Part shown: in pieces, positions 219 to 64,000 of the stretch
Numbering within the stretch: the first letter of the stretch is position 1
How the letters are laid out: every line of letters begins with the position of its first letter
Source: Minisyncoccota bacterium
Lineage (GTDB): Bacteria; Patescibacteriota; Minisyncoccia; Phycocordibacterales; UBA1006
Direction of reading: 5' to 3'
NCBI GenBank assembly: GCA_036405175.1
Contig: DASWYC010000002.1
Coordinates: 57,892 to 121,891, forward strand
Length of the DNA stretch: 64,000 bases
Notes under the pieces: model-generated
What the model was told of the DNA's origin: nothing
What the model saw: the letters and a program-made list of their open reading frames with translations, nothing else
Database searches by the model: none
Translations under genes and position numbers: made by a program

Positions 219-347
219 ATGGCAAAACGAAGTCCTAAAATTGGTGTGCACGTAAAGTCAAACCATTCTCCAAAGACCAAGAAGCGTATCGAGGCAAAGC
301 TCGTAATGCTTGAAGCTAAAAAAGCAAAGCGTGGAGGAAAGAAATAA
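219..347 (+). CDS. small lysine/arginine-rich ORF (42 aa, MAKRSPKIGVHVKSNHSPKTKKRIEAKLVMLEAKKAKRGGKK); possible ribosome- or nucleic-acid-associated small protein
   Basis: ATG at 219, stop 345-347. Promoter-like TATACT/TATAAA boxes lie upstream and a strong hairpin terminator follows. It is below the 60-aa cutoff of the ORF track. No family recognised. Confidence 0.3.
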   Translation: MAKRSPKIGVHVKSNHSPKTKKRIEAKLVMLEAKKAKRGGKK

Positions 348-18460: not shown

Positions 18461-18877
18461 ATGTTCATACATGATTATATCTATGTTCCATTTATAAATA
18501 TTTTTATATTCTATCCTTGGATTACTTATATTCTTATTATTATTGGGTCTTTTCTTGCTCGTTTAAGAAATAAAAAGAAAAACCAACAGATTGATATTCT
18601 CTATTGGGTGTTCACTGGAATTGCAGCAGTCTCACTAATTGGGCTCAACCTTACGTTTACTAGCCTTAGCACAGGTTTCTTTATCGCTGAACTTGTGATT
18701 GCTGCTGTTCTGCTGACAATTAAATTCTTTTTTAAAAAAGAAAATTTTGTTGTGAACTATTTGCTGCTGATAATTACTATCCCCGCTATTATTTCTATAA
18801 TCGTAATTATTATGACTTTATTGCACCCTCCATGTATGGGATGTATAGACCTTCCACGTGTTCCACTTCCAATTTAA
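18461..18877 (+). CDS. small 4-TM membrane protein ending HPPCMGC...VPLP; tandem paralog 1
   Basis: Aligns throughout with the next gene (WVFTGIAAVSL vs YVFLGISVLAL; FIAELVIAAVLL vs FVAEIIIMIVLL; HPPCMGC vs HPDCMGC; C-terminal VPLP). Confidence 0.5.
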   Translation: MFIHDYIYVPFINIFIFYPWITYILIIIGSFLARLRNKKKNQQIDILYWVFTGIAAVSLIGLNLTFTSLSTGFFIAELVIAAVLLTIKFFFKKENFVVNYLLLIITIPAIISIIVIIMTLLHPPCMGCIDLPRVPLPI

Positions 18878-18958: not shown

Positions 18959-19420
18959 ATGCACATTATTTCTATGCTACTTCCATGGGTTTCAGGTATT
19001 TTAATTTGTATTGGACTTATTATTGCATGGCAAAGGAGTAAAAAGAGAAATCGTTCTTTAAATATAACCTATTATGTATTTTTAGGTATTTCAGTACTTG
19101 CCCTGATCGTAATAGACCGATTTTTTAGAGGTATGCTTATAAGTCTGTTTAGTAATACTGTTCATCCAGGCTACTTCGTAGCTGAAATCATTATTATGAT
19201 TGTATTATTAATAATAAGATTTATTCCTAAAAAAGGAAATTTAAATTTTATTGTAAATCATCTCTTGTATATATTTGCTATTCCAGTTATTCTCGGCACG
19301 ATTGATTTGGTGAATGCGGTTCGTCATCCTGACTGTATGGGTTGCCCAATTTACATTAATGATGATCCCACCAGAGAATTCAATGCCATAGAAGGATTGA
19401 GACATGTGCCTTTGCCCTAA
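18959..19420 (+). CDS. small 4-TM membrane protein ending HPDCMGC...VPLP; tandem paralog 2
   Basis: See paralog 1. Confidence 0.5.
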   Translation: MHIISMLLPWVSGILICIGLIIAWQRSKKRNRSLNITYYVFLGISVLALIVIDRFFRGMLISLFSNTVHPGYFVAEIIIMIVLLIIRFIPKKGNLNFIVNHLLYIFAIPVILGTIDLVNAVRHPDCMGCPIYINDDPTREFNAIEGLRHVPLP

Positions 19421-59670: not shown

Positions 59671-60597
59671 ATGTCCCAACGTCATCTTGCTCGTTCTCTC
59701 GTTATGCAAGGGCTCTACGCCCGAGATTTTGCCTTGGATCAAGGTGAAGAAGAGTGTTTTAATACACTCATGTACACTGTTAATGAATATGCTAAAGGGA
59801 TGGATAATCCGGAATTCGTATACGATCTTTATCGTAATATCATCAGAAAAATTGCCGTACTTGATGAAGTAATTCAAAAAGCTGCGCCGCAATATCCTAT
59901 TCAAACTATTTCAGGAGTTGACCGCAATGTGATGCGCATTGGGCTTTATGAGCTTTTGTTTGGTGACTATGATCAAGTGCCACCAAAGGTTGCAATCACT
60001 GAAGCTATTGTGCTTGCAAAAACATTCGGTGGAGAAAATTCAAATAAATTTGTGAACGGAGTACTTGGAACAATTTATCGTGAACTTGGTGAGCCACAGA
60101 AAGATCACAAGCCTGAAGAAAAGAAAGATGTGGTTGATGATGCAGATTTGCCGGTGCTTAAAAAAGCTGGAGGATTTATTTACACCGTTGAAGATGGCAT
60201 GATTTATGTTGTGCTTGTTCATGATATCTTTGGATTCTGGACGTTTTCAAAAGGTGGACAAAAAGAAGGTGAGGATCTTCGCCAAGCAGCAGCTCGTGCG
60301 CTTCAAGAAGAGCTTGGTATCACTGTAACTCCTCAGGAAGAAATTGGAATGCATAAATATACTGCTCACTCGCCAACAGAAGGAAAGGTTATTAAGGAAG
60401 TTACGTACTATTTATGTCAGGCACCAGAGCGCTCAGATTTGGTAATTGGAGACATGGATGGTGGAATCATTGACGCACGTTGGTTTTCGTTGGATGAAAT
60501 TACCGATTTGCGTATGTACAGCGATGTGGTAAAAATAGTAGGAACCGCACTGGAAATCATTGCTGAAAAGCATCAAGATTTAGTAAAGGCGCGCTAA
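59671..60597 (+). CDS. nusB: NusB-NUDIX fusion: antitermination factor NusB N-terminal domain (about 145 aa) fused to a NUDIX hydrolase domain
   Basis: NusB-like N-terminus LARSLVMQGLYARDF...ITEAIVLAKTFGGENSNKFVNGVLG. C-terminal Nudix box GGQKEGEDLRQAAARALQEELGI. Confidence 0.8.
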   Translation: MSQRHLARSLVMQGLYARDFALDQGEEECFNTLMYTVNEYAKGMDNPEFVYDLYRNIIRKIAVLDEVIQKAAPQYPIQTISGVDRNVMRIGLYELLFGDYDQVPPKVAITEAIVLAKTFGGENSNKFVNGVLGTIYRELGEPQKDHKPEEKKDVVDDADLPVLKKAGGFIYTVEDGMIYVVLVHDIFGFWTFSKGGQKEGEDLRQAAARALQEELGITVTPQEEIGMHKYTAHSPTEGKVIKEVTYYLCQAPERSDLVIGDMDGGIIDARWFSLDEITDLRMYSDVVKIVGTALEIIAEKHQDLVKAR

Positions 60598-60612: not shown

Positions 60613-61302
60613 ATGATCAATACGACCGCACTCGAGAAAATTATCGGAACAAAGATTAAGGATCAAGATCTCTATACTCAGGCATTTACGCACCGTTCGT
60701 TTATTAATGAACATCCTCATTTGGGGCTTTCGCATAATGAACGTCTTGAGTTTTTAGGTGATGCTGTTTTGGAATTAGTGGCAACTCATGCGCTCTTTTT
60801 ACAATATCCAAAACATCCAGAAGGGCAATTAACGGCCTTTAGAAGTGCGATTGTTCGCACGGAATCTATTTCAGAAAGTGCTCGTGAAATTGGTTTAAAT
60901 GATTTTCTTCTCCTTTCAAAAGGTGAATCACGTGATACAGGGAAGGCTCGTGACTATATTTTGGCAAATACCTATGAGGCGTTGATTGGTGCAATTTACT
61001 TGGATGCCGGCTATGAAGCTGCATCTGCGTTTATTAAAAACACTTTGCTTCATAAAGTTGAAGGGGTAGTAGAAGGAGGATTATGGCGCGATCCAAAATC
61101 ATACACGCAAGAGAAAGCGCAGGAGCAATTTAATGTGACACCAATGTATAAAAGTCTTAAAGACGAAGGGCCTGATCACGATAAAATATTTACCGTTGGA
61201 GTATTCTTTGGTGAGAAAGAGGTTGCGCGTGGGGTAGGAAAGTCTAAACAAGATGCCGAGCAGGCTGCGGCACGCAAAGCGATTGAGATGTTTAATTGGT
61301 AA
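60613..61302 (+). CDS. rnc: ribonuclease III
   Basis: Signature ERLEFLGDAVLELV and a C-terminal dsRBD. Confidence 0.9.
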   Translation: MINTTALEKIIGTKIKDQDLYTQAFTHRSFINEHPHLGLSHNERLEFLGDAVLELVATHALFLQYPKHPEGQLTAFRSAIVRTESISESAREIGLNDFLLLSKGESRDTGKARDYILANTYEALIGAIYLDAGYEAASAFIKNTLLHKVEGVVEGGLWRDPKSYTQEKAQEQFNVTPMYKSLKDEGPDHDKIFTVGVFFGEKEVARGVGKSKQDAEQAAARKAIEMFNW

Positions 61303-61370: not shown

Positions 61371-61886
61371 ATGAAACATAGAATACTTAAGCTTCGAGTT
61401 GTCGTCCCAGGGAATATAAACCTGAATACTCTTATTCCAAATACAATGATGAAGTTGGAGAAAAAACAAAAGAAGAAGGGTGTTTATGCATATGGTAGCT
61501 CACTCCTCAGTAAGCCTGCAGTGCCAAAGGGTTTATTTCCAGGCAAAACCTACAAGGTGATTATCATTTCTCGAGAAAGTGTTGCCGTAAATGAAGACTC
61601 AAGTAAGCTGTATTATCAGGGTCAAGAATACCTCTGGTTCGGGGCTCATGGGTTCTGTATTCTGGCGAGTTTTTTATCAAAAAAGATGAAATCTAAAATC
61701 GGAGAACAGGAAAGATTAATATCTTTTGGAGAAAAGATGCCATATGAAACTTTTGATGAAACAAAAGTGGATAACAGGTTGGCTGCAATGTATGTTACGA
61801 CTTCTCGTAATATTTTCCAATTTGTTATACCTGAGTGCGGAAGTAATCAAAGAAGGGACATGCTGGTTGCTTTTAGGCCTATTTAA
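61371..61886 (+). CDS. hypothetical protein
   Basis: 171-aa ORF between rnc and smc, followed by a long hairpin (61890..61928). Confidence 0.3.
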   Translation: MKHRILKLRVVVPGNINLNTLIPNTMMKLEKKQKKKGVYAYGSSLLSKPAVPKGLFPGKTYKVIIISRESVAVNEDSSKLYYQGQEYLWFGAHGFCILASFLSKKMKSKIGEQERLISFGEKMPYETFDETKVDNRLAAMYVTTSRNIFQFVIPECGSNQRRDMLVAFRPI

Positions 61887-61956: not shown

Positions 61957-64000
61957 ATGACCGCGCTCAAACGCCTTGAAATGGAGGGTTTTAAATCATT
62001 TGGAAAGAAAGTTATCCTCCAATTTAACACACCTATTACGGGTGTTGTTGGGCCTAATGGGTCAGGAAAATCAAATATTGTGGAGGCATTCCGCTTTGTG
62101 TTTGGAGAACAATCAATGAAATCAATGCGTAGCGATGCGGGAGCAGATTTGCTTTTTCAAGGTGCAGGTACCAAAGCTACAGAGGCTTACGTATCAATTA
62201 TTTTTGAAAATGTTTCAATTAAAAACAAAGCACTCCTTTCAGATATTAGTGCGCTGTTGGAAGGTGATGAGTTGGAAATCAAACGTACTATTACATTGGA
62301 TAAAGGTTCACAGTATTTTATTAACGGAACAAATGTGCGTCTTAAAGATGTGACGGCATTGGCTGCTGCACTTTCTTTGGGAATTGGAAGTCATCATATC
62401 ATTTCACAAGGTGAGGCGGATAGGATTATGTCTGCAACGGCACGTGAGCGTAAGCTCATGATTGAGGATTCTCTTGGGTTGCGCATCTATCACATTAAAA
62501 TCAAAGAGACTGAGAAAAAGTTGGATCAGGCACTGATGAATGTGCGTGAGTTGGCAGCAAAAAAACAATCAATCATTCCAATCTTTAATGATCTTAAAAA
62601 ACAAGTTGAAAAGATTGAGTTGGCACAATCACTCAGAACAGAATTACAAACGGCGGCATCAGTGTATTTTTCATTATTAGAAAAAAGTTTGTCCGAGGAG
62701 AGCAAAAAGAACTCAGAAGAGTATGGTGTGATTTTGCAGGAGCTTGCAAAAGTTGAACAGGAAAAATCAATCAAAGAAGAATCACTTATTGCAAAAAAAA
62801 GCAGCATGACCAAGCGGGTTACGAATGTTGAACTTGAAGAATCAATTGAACAACGCCGTAATGATATACGGAATTGTGAACGTGATAGTGATGCGCTTAC
62901 CATGAAAATTGATTTTGCTATGAGAGAGGCAGAAAAGCTTGTAAAAAAAATGACCCATCAAAATCATATTCACTACACAATTTCTCATGAAGAATATGAA
63001 GTATTTCAGTCTGTTCTTAAGCACATTGAACAGGCCTCAACACTTGAGCAGATAAAAACTATTTTAAATAGTGCGGATTTTGAAACATGTAAAAAAGTTT
63101 TTAGCTCGCAGCAGGATAGAGTTGCAAAGCAGGATTTTGAAATTGATATCCAGAATTATCGTGATGAGGCAACGCAGTTGGAAGAACAAAGAAATGCATT
63201 AACAGAAAAGTTGCGTGGACTTCAGGCGGCATATCAGGATTTGATTAATCAAAAAAAGCAGGATGAGCAAGCCTTTGTTGAAAGTTTTTCTCAGATTGCA
63301 GATGATGAACGTGCGGTGATGCAGTTACAGCAGCGCGTAATGGAGCTCATGCAGCGCAAAAATATGTTGGATATGGCGCGTAGTAACGTGGCACATAAGC
63401 AGGAAGAAATGAATACCTTTAAAGAGTATATTGGTGCATATGTTGATCTTGCTCAGGAGATAAACAATGACGATGCTCAAAAGTTTACCGGTAAAGAACT
63501 GGGTGCACTTAAGCAGCAGTGTGAACGTTTGTGCTACAAAATTGAAGATATGGGAGGTGGAGGTGGCGGAGATGTGATGCATCTGTTTGAAGAAACTCAA
63601 AAAGAACTTGATGTTATTGCAGGACATAGTGATGATACAAGTCGTGCCGTTGATGAACTTCAAAAGATAATTGCTGACTTGCAGGAATCACTCAAACAAG
63701 AATTTGAAGAAGGACTAGAAGCGGTAAATAATTCGTTCAAGCATAATTTTGTAACCCTCTTTTCTGGTGGTGATGCACGTATTGTGATATTGAAGAGTGA
63801 GGATGAGGACGGCGTGTCTGAGGGAATTGATATTGACGTTGCGTTGCCTAAGAAAAACATTACCTCACTCGCAATGCTTTCAGGAGGAGAGCGTGCGCTT
63901 ACCTCGATTGCGCTATTGTTTGCACTCTGTTCGTTGACTCCGCCACCATTCTTAGTGCTCGATGAAACCGACGCTGCACTTGACGAAGCAAACTCAGCAC
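61957..64000 (+). CDS. smc: SMC-family chromosome partition ATPase with short coiled-coil and no recognisable hinge (3' end beyond window)
   Basis: N-terminus LEMEGFKSFGKK...GPNGSGKSNIVEAFRFVFGEQSMKSMRS. C-terminal head ...LSGGERALTSIALLFAL...FLVLDETDAALD only about 640 aa later. Open to window end in frame. Not in the ORF track because no stop falls inside the window. Confidence 0.8.
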   Translation, partial: MTALKRLEMEGFKSFGKKVILQFNTPITGVVGPNGSGKSNIVEAFRFVFGEQSMKSMRSDAGADLLFQGAGTKATEAYVSIIFENVSIKNKALLSDISALLEGDELEIKRTITLDKGSQYFINGTNVRLKDVTALAAALSLGIGSHHIISQGEADRIMSATARERKLMIEDSLGLRIYHIKIKETEKKLDQALMNVRELAAKKQSIIPIFNDLKKQVEKIELAQSLRTELQTAASVYFSLLEKSLSEESKKNSEEYGVILQELAKVEQEKSIKEESLIAKKSSMTKRVTNVELEESIEQRRNDIRNCERDSDALTMKIDFAMREAEKLVKKMTHQNHIHYTISHEEYEVFQSVLKHIEQASTLEQIKTILNSADFETCKKVFSSQQDRVAKQDFEIDIQNYRDEATQLEEQRNALTEKLRGLQAAYQDLINQKKQDEQAFVESFSQIADDERAVMQLQQRVMELMQRKNMLDMARSNVAHKQEEMNTFKEYIGAYVDLAQEINNDDAQKFTGKELGALKQQCERLCYKIEDMGGGGGGDVMHLFEETQKELDVIAGHSDDTSRAVDELQKIIADLQESLKQEFEEGLEAVNNSFKHNFVTLFSGGDARIVILKSEDEDGVSEGIDIDVALPKKNITSLAMLSGGERALTSIALLFALCSLTPPPFLVLDETDAALDEANSA

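Follow-up and report, generated by a model that had tools for sequence, protein, structure and literature searches.

A short Smc-type protein lacking a recognisable hinge is widespread in Paceibacteria and may act with ScpAB

The 64,000-nucleotide stretch of DNA analysed here (the window) closes with the rnc gene for RNase III, an orphan open reading frame of 171 aa and an smc gene whose 3' end lies beyond the window (Table 1). The 681 smc codons inside the window contain zero stops, and their translation holds all of the motifs that were quoted in a preliminary description of the locus, namely GFKSF, GPNGSGKSN, FGEQS, MGGGGGGD, the signature and LVLDETDAALD. That description had also recognised that the protein is truncated by the window end and had estimated its total length at about 720 aa, which was close as the full protein (P0001), encoded on a 667,975-bp NCBI contig and with 100% identity to the window ORF, has 738 aa. 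At NCBI, P0001 is labelled merely "AAA family ATPase", and the current annotation of short Smc proteins is either this label or the generic "chromosome segregation protein". The Pfam family SMC_N covers aa 4-680 (2.3e-45, search at E<=1).

Table 1. Features of the smc locus, with positions counted in the window and amino acids (aa) counted in the short Smc protein
Feature	Position	Strand	Basis
rnc (RNase III), conserved upstream neighbour of smc	60613..61302	+	Pfam Ribonucleas_3_3 3.9e-39 plus dsrm; TIGR02191 9.5e-72
Orphan 171-aa ORF between rnc and smc, outside the conserved unit	61371..61886	+	no Pfam, NCBIfam or PADLOC match
Short hinge-less smc gene	61957..64000	+	open frame, codons 1-681 of 738; 3' end beyond window
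N-terminal half of ATPase head, aa 1-172	61957..62472	+	motifs; aligns to B. subtilis Smc head residues 1-209; beta/alpha head fold in AF2 model
Walker A GPNGSGKSN, aa 32-40	62050-62076	+	motif
Arginine finger KSMR, aa 55-58	within 61957..62472	+	motif
Q-loop SQGE, aa 150	within 61957..62472	+	motif
N-terminal arm helix, aa 176-334	62482..62958	+	AF2 helices 176-288 and 291-334; family length 151-163 aa
Apex, aa 335-391: small helical cap replacing the hinge, low-confidence in the window protein	62959..63129	+	
C-terminal distal arm helix, aa 392-492, antiparallel to N-arm	63130..63432	+	AF2 helix 392-492
Joint region of arm, aa 493-538: break, short helices, poly-Gly loop MGGGGGG	63433..63570	+	AF2 break 493-511, helix 512-531, loop 532-537
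G533-G538 of poly-Gly loop	63553-63570	+	MGGGGGGD = aa 532-539
C-terminal neck helix and C-terminal head half, aa 539-681 in window	63571..64000	+	36% identity to B. subtilis Smc C-head over 205 aa
Signature LSGGERALTSIALLFAL at aa 641; LSGGE	63877-63891	+	motif
Walker B LVLDETDAALD at aa 666; LVLDE	63952-63966	+	motif
H-loop THN, aa 700	outside window, in P0001		motif

The ATPase head is of the Smc type by sequence as well as by structure. The best NCBIfam identity of the 681-aa window fragment is SMC_prok_B (TIGR02168; 1e-106, 358 bits), as compared with at most 50 bits for the ASRP, Rad50 and RecF models. The score of 358 bits lies below the 567-bit equivalog cutoff of TIGR02168, which is expected because about 450 profile positions are missing from the short protein. 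When PDB sequences are searched with the family profile, the B. subtilis Smc head 5XG3 is matched at 4e-119 (33-36% identity to the B. subtilis head), and the top structural match in Foldseek is 5XEI, a Smc head with coiled coil and joint (1.4e-26). The Walker A, arginine finger, Q-loop, signature, Walker B, D-loop and H-loop motifs are invariant in 119 relatives, and judged by these motifs the head is complete and predicted to be a catalytically competent ABC-type Smc head. Most family members additionally carry an acidic insert in the C-terminal head that is absent from the window protein.

Beyond the head, the AlphaFold (AF2) model of the protein (pLDDT 81.7) contains an arm built as an antiparallel coiled coil with approximately 160-170 residues per strand and a length of roughly 24 nm, which bears out the earlier claim of strongly shortened arms. 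As modelled, these arms would be about half of the canonical ~50 nm or ~340 aa. Segment lengths are tight across 119 family members, with 151-163 aa for the N-arm, 43-61 aa for the apex and 134-149 aa for the C-arm (the stretch corresponding to aa 392-532), a regularity that argues for selection and not decay. The neck part of the N-arm (aa 176-225) is highly conserved and its distal part poorly so. On the C-terminal strand, the break at aa 493-538 faces a continuous N-helix, and these model features match the joint of Smc as previously described (PMC5526789). The family motif ERxKIKLEDxGGGGGGDV aligns to IKLAIEELGTVNLGS of B. subtilis Smc, by which alignment the glycine run is this family's counterpart of the canonical "EELGxVNLG" joint loop; a reading of this run as a hinge remnant is ruled out by its alignment to the LGxVN loop. 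The Smc-type head-proximal joint is retained.

The preliminary description reported no recognisable hinge, and profile searches agree with it, as SMC_hinge (PF06470) was absent from the window protein in Pfam at E<=1 and, for each of 40 relatives, from the families that were listed at E<=0.1. What occupies the site of the ~150-aa hinge in the 119 members is the short apical segment, a helical cap. Apex-only AF2 modelling of typical members yields a confident small two-helix cap, so that the apex is not bare, and the apex modelled alone is a monomeric arrangement of four helices, again predicted with confidence. The cap helices bear one hydrophobic stripe apiece, a pattern compatible with a purely intramolecular cap. 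Sequence conservation of the apex is low (0.25-0.4 in the conservation profile), and a GRxEG helix segment of the GxxxG type beside it is kept by at least 113 of the 119 members, which suggests a specific contact at this position. The window protein and its closest relative (P0002) are without the GRxEG motif, and their apex is modelled at low confidence. A zinc-hook apex was also considered and is ruled out, as a CxxC motif in the distal arm or apex occurs in 0 of 119 members.

The short Smc is not a one-off but a large family in the ultra-small Paceibacteria. Relatives are present in at least 541 species-level genomes and fall into more than 150 clusters at 50% identity, usually beside rnc, and when lengths are compared the best 150 representatives at 50% identity all measure 663-782 aa. 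A search of the literature found no prior description of a short Smc family in Patescibacteria. The gene order NusB-NUDIX / rnc / smc / VanY / RNase R / S16 / KH / TrmD is kept in most of approximately 82 loci, with rnc adjoining the short smc in 64 of them. This conserved arrangement supports Smc orthology and, together with heads that are Smc-type by both sequence and structure, upholds the original reading of the gene as an SMC ortholog. The rnc-smc position that had been assigned to it was correct in substance, though the 171-aa ORF intervenes here. In relatives this ORF is missing from this position, rnc is usually directly adjacent to smc, and the slot, where there is one, is filled by unrelated variable genes. 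A role for the ORF as a partner subunit was therefore rejected, given that it has no family matches and is unconserved.

Likely partners of the short Smc were looked for both in the window and in related genomes. With 39 mid-size ORFs scanned as concatenated pseudo-proteins, ScpA and ScpB were not found in the 64-kb window, nor in the 10 kb downstream of it, a portion that amounts to ~74 kb of the 668-kb contig. In one related locus (L043), a short Smc of 752 aa is followed 4.4 kb downstream by genes for ScpA (Pfam, 58.5 bits) and ScpB (116 bits), and another contig (L088) carries the C-terminus of a short-family Smc together with scpA-scpB. Additionally, the Parcubacteria-type ScpB family is large and ScpB is widespread in Parcubacteria. 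A 5' fragment on a further contig (L090) was considered as a Smc C-terminus and rejected, as it is a Sua5-like gene instead.

We consider it probable, at approximately 0.7, that the protein is the Smc ortholog of Paceibacteria (Parcubacteria / Patescibacteria), a lineage-wide reduced form that works with ScpAB as a compact condensin. Two short Smc proteins would form a homodimer that, together with the kleisin ScpA and the kite protein ScpB, would make up a compact Smc-ScpAB complex in which ATP-driven head engagement and release clamps and moves chromosomal DNA, as in canonical prokaryotic condensin. The dimer may be held together at its apex, through the cap and the conserved GRxEG helix segment beside it, and additionally by co-alignment of the arms and bridging of the heads by ScpA, with the hinge's own DNA-binding and gate functions presumably absent or taken over elsewhere. 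Experiments in B. subtilis make a short hinge-less Smc plausible, as Smc there tolerates a Rad50 zinc hook in place of the hinge and works only with arms of certain discrete lengths, which recur with a period of ~91-99 aa (PMC5344682), while arm-arm contacts contribute to dimerisation of hinge-less Smc (PMC5526789). Removal of two such periods from the 344-aa wild-type arm leaves ~146-162 aa. Natural prokaryotic SMC arms have a minor length mode at 163 aa (PMC5344682), and the strands of ~160-170 aa coincide with this mode. A more far-reaching proposal, which we put forward only tentatively and at somewhat short of even odds, is that the short form is the only Smc of the whole class (Paceibacteria, with hundreds to thousands of species) and carries out the full Smc-ScpAB cycle, the loading of DNA and its translocation or loop extrusion included, without a hinge, with ~24-nm arms and with dimerisation via a small helical cap that has not been described before and makes a GxxxG contact.

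The same partners could also be served by a protein that forms no stable dimer at its apex. The cap would then merely close the hairpin, and the two arms would be kept together by contacts between them, by ATP-engaged heads and by ScpA as a bridge, in an open-topped or transient SMC dimer. The confident monomeric fold of the apex-only model, the low conservation of the apex and the lack of the GRxEG motif in the subclade of the window protein all fit this alternative, as does the dimerisation of hinge-less B. subtilis Smc through its arms (PMC5526789). Against it stand the tightly constrained length of the apex and the GxxxG-type motif that nearly all members keep beside it. Additionally, topological closure of a ring usually requires a second interface that is stable. 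On balance we regard an open-topped arrangement as rather unlikely.

It is improbable that the gene instead encodes a specialised SMC-like paralog, such as a repair protein akin to RecN or Rad50, and that a canonical smc gene lies elsewhere in the genome. The preliminary description had noted a RecN-like architecture with SMC-type heads, and the overall likeness (heads, a short coiled coil and no hinge) holds; however, no RecN model matches and ScpA/ScpB partners occur in the genomes of at least two relatives. The uninformative NCBI annotation and the limited portion of the contig that was inspected leave some room for a paralog. The Rad50/SbcC models score just 20-42 bits against 358 bits for Smc, however, and a zinc hook is missing, the Smc-specific joint is kept, the gene fills the smc slot by rnc in most genomes and the closest 150 representatives are all short. 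Membership in a system of defence against phages or plasmids (MADS mad3, Lamassu LmuB or Wadjet JetC) is very improbable: the PADLOC models do give 183-205 bits for mad3 and 47-99 bits for LmuB, but the head of the housekeeping B. subtilis Smc scores higher on mad3 (340 bits), which identifies this model as a generic Smc-head profile and effectively refutes such an identity, and the neighbourhood is conserved and housekeeping with no defence partners. An assembly artefact or decaying gene, with an internal deletion that fused the N- and C-terminal halves, has nothing beyond the unusual length in its favour and is refuted by three Logan runs that independently assembled the identical gene in the same context, thereby excluding mis-assembly, and by hundreds of species with the same architecture, narrow lengths and invariant catalytic residues.

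To our knowledge, every textbook SMC from bacteria to humans has arms of ~50 nm and a globular hinge. The hinge dimerises SMC and binds DNA, and proposals cast it as a gate for DNA or, in models of loop extrusion, as a moving part. A widespread Smc with half-length arms that has neither hinge nor hook and retains ScpAB would therefore offer a natural test, set by evolution, of which parts an SMC truly needs, including what the hinge is for, and would constrain models that require hinge-DNA contacts, hinge-head contacts or an elbow. Should the short form indeed be the only Smc of these organisms and run the full cycle, then a domain held to be universal and mechanistically important would be dispensable in nature, and the complex would be the smallest natural SMC-kleisin machine available for structural work. 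A protein of ~740 aa should also ease crystallography, cryo-EM and single-molecule study. The short form may additionally reflect chromosome machinery that is scaled to ultra-small cells and their 0.5-1 Mb genomes.

Comparison with known systems places the family closest to Smc proper. RecN dimerises at the tip of its coiled coil and shares with the short Smc the SMC-superfamily heads, the short coiled coil and the lack of a hinge; the NCBIfam RecN models give no match to the window protein at E<=1, and the heads, joint and gene context of the short Smc are Smc-type, with ScpAB as the likely partners. Rad50/SbcC likewise combines heads with an antiparallel coiled coil and a small apex in place of a globular hinge, but differs by its CxxC hook and by the low scores of its models. 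The archaea-specific SMC-related protein (ASRP, NF045487) reaches 49.7 bits, which is below its 300-bit cutoff. Mini-Smc and Smc(zinc-hook) chimeras established that shortened arms with a non-hinge dimerisation module can give a functional Smc-ScpAB (Burmann et al. 2017; PMC5344682); the shortest functional arms in these laboratory constructs were ~253-267 aa and ended in a hinge or hook, whereas the arms of the natural family are shorter still and end in neither of these. A cluster of "hinge-less" SMC sequences from marine metagenomes, assigned to Actinobacteria, was described in 2025 (PMC12153180). This cluster and the short Smc family of Patescibacteria both have natural SMC-type heads with a coiled coil, no hinge and no CxxC hook and come from uncultivated bacteria; compared by description only, the marine cluster differs in reported lineage and habitat, with ScpAB linkage, joint and arm length undescribed there. 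With respect to B. subtilis Smc of Smc-ScpAB (TIGR02168; ~1,180 aa, arms of ~344 aa), the short Smc is reduced to ~740 aa and ~160-170 aa per arm strand, has the helical cap for a hinge and a poly-Gly loop for LGxVN, carries the acidic head insert in most members other than the window protein, and scores below the family cutoff. It nevertheless shares with B. subtilis Smc the full-motif ABC head, the neck and the joint with a loop at the LGxVN position, the intramolecular antiparallel coiled coil, the gene position next to rnc, and the presence of ScpA and ScpB in its lineage, on the same contig in two genomes.

Translation of the smc reading frame gave 681 stop-free codons containing all of the SMC head motifs quoted in the preliminary description. 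Homology searching yielded the full-length protein (P0001, 738 aa), which is 100% identical over the window portion and is encoded on a 667,975-bp contig under the NCBI name 'MAG TPA: AAA family ATPase [Candidatus Paceibacterota bacterium]'. Both the short smc and the same neighbours were independently assembled in three Logan runs, so a chimeric assembly is ruled out. Pfam SMC_N covers both ends of the protein and SMC_hinge was not found in it even at E<=1. The NCBIfam bacterial Smc equivalog matches in two stretches (1e-106, 358 bits), below its 567-bit cutoff.

As judged by Foldseek, the closest PDB structure is 5XEI, in which the head of a Pyrococcus Smc is seen together with its coiled coil and joint. 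A family profile matches 5XG3, the head of B. subtilis Smc (E=4e-119), and both head halves exhibit 33-36% identity to B. subtilis Smc in pairwise BLAST. Walker A, arginine finger, Q-loop, signature, Walker B, D-loop and H-loop are all present in the window Smc, and the catalytic motifs are invariant across the family. The Smc joint is a head-proximal interruption of the arm in which a continuous N-terminal helix is wrapped by C-terminal helix-loop elements (PMC5526789). The glycine run previously noticed near the C-terminal head is present and is the family's form of this conserved joint loop, since 'IKLEDxGGGGGGDV' aligns with the canonical 'IEELGTVNLGS' of 5XG3 in the profile alignment, with pairwise BLAST in agreement; a displaced hinge motif is therefore rejected. 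Short Smc keeps the Smc-type ATPase head, the neck and the joint intact, and its anatomy in an AlphaFold2 model built from an alignment of 119 relatives (mean pLDDT 81.7) is tabulated below. Most family members additionally have a strongly acidic, Lys-rich insert of 30-45 aa between the FGGG and GIDI strands of the C-terminal head, where the window Smc has only 15 aa.

Coordinates of short Smc segments and of associated genes
Feature	Nucleotides	Amino acids	Source or length
smc, codons 1-681	window 61957-64000 (+)		translation
N-terminal head half		1-172	AlphaFold2 model
Long helix, single kink at 289-290		176-334	AlphaFold2 model
Apex, low confidence, three short helices		335-391	AlphaFold2 model
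Long return helix		392-492	AlphaFold2 model
Interrupted segment		493-538	AlphaFold2 model
Helix into C-terminal head half		538-602	AlphaFold2 model
Divergent neck positions		202-209	family alignment A2
Divergent GRxEG positions	window 62890-62904	312-316	family alignment A2
Site of acidic insert	window 63781-63825	609-623	family alignment A2
NusB-NUDIX fusion	window 59671-60597 (+)	NusB 7-137, NUDIX hydrolase 177-281	308 aa
Orphan ORF between rnc and smc	window 61371-61886 (+)		171 aa
Membrane protein, first paralog	window 18461-18877 (+)		138 aa
Membrane protein, second paralog	window 18959-19420 (+)		153 aa
Gene upstream of scpA, locus L043	16330-16608		92-93 aa
Gene upstream of scpA, locus L088	4659-4937		92-93 aa
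Gene upstream of scpA, locus L090	4284-4565		92-93 aa

The claim that no hinge is recognizable held not only for the window protein but also for its relatives. For none of 40 full-length relatives did the list of Pfam families at E<=0.1 include SMC_hinge, and a profile search of 40 diverse apex fragments against PDB and Pfam for a cryptic hinge returned only coiled-coil and helical-bundle noise. Additionally, no family member has a CxxC in the distal arm or apex. AlphaFold modelled the apex alone, from a fragment of a typical member (P0024), with confidence (pLDDT 87); in this model the N-arm helix ends in a loop, followed by two short helices (13 and 16 residues, pLDDT ~90) and a second loop, after which the C-arm helix starts. 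Based on these negative searches and this model, the family has a 43-61 aa helical cap, and no hinge, crowning a short antiparallel arm. In most members the N-arm helix has a strongly conserved LGRxEGxIE motif shortly before the cap; it is the sole conserved island of an otherwise variable distal arm and has a GxxxG-type pattern, with both glycines in at least 113 of 119 sequences. The motif is absent from the window Smc and its nearest relative (P0002, 57% identity), which have D-A-x-T-M where the family has GRxEG and, in the neck, KKQSIIPI where the family has LRRExAPH. Both arm positions are near-invariant in the remaining family, and these two proteins form a divergent subclade.

The best 120 database matches are all 728-775 aa with none having a precomputed hinge domain, and comparison of lengths across relatives revealed the short form throughout the best 150 representatives of 50%-identity clusters (663-782 aa). 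A scan of species-representative genomes located relatives in at least 541 genomes. In the best 80 of these the match spans residues 1-738 within ~2.2 kb, and the genomes are from Paceibacterota, Parcubacteria, Nomura-, Yonath-, Taylor- and Ryanbacteria, and Minisyncoccia. Many MAGs with a short-smc locus (L006-L084) are titled 'uncultured Candidatus Saccharibacteria bacterium' and one 'Flavobacteriaceae bacterium', titles that probably reflect generic or wrong taxonomy or mis-binned contigs. ORF clustering across ~82 loci defined a conserved housekeeping set of RNase HII, NusB-NUDIX fusion, rnc, short smc, VanY-type peptidase, RNase R-like protein, S16, KH protein and TrmD. An rnc gene adjoining smc is the classical bacterial arrangement, and this adjacency supports positional orthology of the short smc. 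The NusB-NUDIX fusion is found upstream of rnc in 64 of the ~82 Paceibacteria loci. Neither Pfam nor NCBIfam nor PADLOC matches the orphan ORF that separates rnc from smc; because other genomes have unrelated genes in this slot (among them sigma-factor-like, pilin-like and P-type ATPase genes), the slot looks like an insertion hot spot with the ORF as one such insert. Elsewhere in the window, two adjacent paralogous small multi-pass membrane proteins share a C-terminal 'HP(P/D)CMGC...VPLP' motif and have no Pfam match.

Partners of Smc were sought by comparing approximate ScpA (kleisin) and ScpB (kite) query sequences with all ORFs of the window and the retrieved loci. Neither was found in the window and the next 10 kb, which cover ~11% of the 667,975-bp contig, and the queries matched one locus (L043). 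There, a 752-aa hinge-less Smc in its usual context is followed 4.4 kb downstream by scpA and scpB (Pfam 58.5 and 116 bits; cutoffs 24.6 and 27.4, respectively). A search seeded with this ScpB uncovered a Parcubacteria-type ScpB family that is large, has entries bearing the names Parcubacteria and Paceibacterota, and lies in a conserved operon context of aminoacyl-tRNA synthetases, ScpA, ScpB, Peptidase_S11, MraY, FtsW and MurG. A second locus (L088) starts with a short-family Smc C-terminus (motifs PPPFLILDETDAALDEANS, THNRETM and terminal YAK) and has scpA-scpB 4.6 kb downstream. Since these two loci carry both, at least two genomes combine short Smc with its canonical kleisin and kite, and ScpAB is present in the lineage. 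Immediately upstream of scpA and nearly abutting it, three related genomes have a small gene with weak Trp-repressor/HTH_23 similarity that may encode either a co-transcribed regulator or an additional subunit.

We envisage that short Smc would form a homodimer with heads bridged by ScpA, and that ATP-driven head engagement would open the arms and clamp DNA in the manner of Smc-ScpAB. The dimer could be joined through the cap and the GRxEG region. It is also plausible that arm-arm contacts, ScpA and the heads suffice, since arm contacts contribute to dimerisation of a hinge-less B. subtilis Smc (PMC5526789).

Short Smc is unlikely to be a repair paralog resembling RecN or Rad50, as RecN models in NCBIfam do not match the window Smc, Rad50 models reach only 20-42 bits and the zinc hook is absent, whereas the Smc-specific joint, rnc synteny and ScpAB linkage all indicate Smc proper. 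The PADLOC 'mad3' model (PDLC04135) strongly matches short Smc (183-205 bits), as would befit a defence component, but the hit is non-specific because the head of the housekeeping Smc of B. subtilis reaches an even higher score (340 bits), and the surrounding genes do not form a defence island; this profile will tag ordinary Smc genes as defence unless gene context is checked. Because lengths stay within narrow ranges and the catalytic residues do not vary across hundreds of species, gene decay and artefact are both excluded.

In the searchable literature, this Patescibacteria family was not found to be described. The concept of a natural hinge-less SMC is not new, since such variants were reported in 2025 from marine sequences assigned to Actinobacteria, also without a zinc hook and with hinge loss versus paralogy discussed (PMC12153180). 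A very large Paceibacteria family with half-length arms and tightly constrained lengths, which keeps the joint and ScpAB partners, appears not to have been described before. In 119 members, lengths range over 151-163 aa for the N-arm, 134-149 aa for the C-arm as far as the Gly loop, and 69-70 aa from that loop to the head strand. With head boundaries taken from the B. subtilis alignment, each arm strand has ~160-170 residues (roughly 24 nm) versus 344 in B. subtilis Smc, and the arms are indeed strongly shortened, as first proposed. Natural prokaryotic SMC arms have modes at 238, 341 and 515 aa, with minor ones at 163 and 423 aa (PMC5344682). B. subtilis Smc accepts the Rad50 zinc hook as a functional substitute for its hinge and tolerates shortening only at discrete arm lengths, with function regained at 253-267 aa and a functional period of ~91-99 aa (Burmann et al., PMC5344682). 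By correspondence rather than demonstration, the short-Smc arms would lie close to the wild-type B. subtilis length minus two periods (~146-162 aa).
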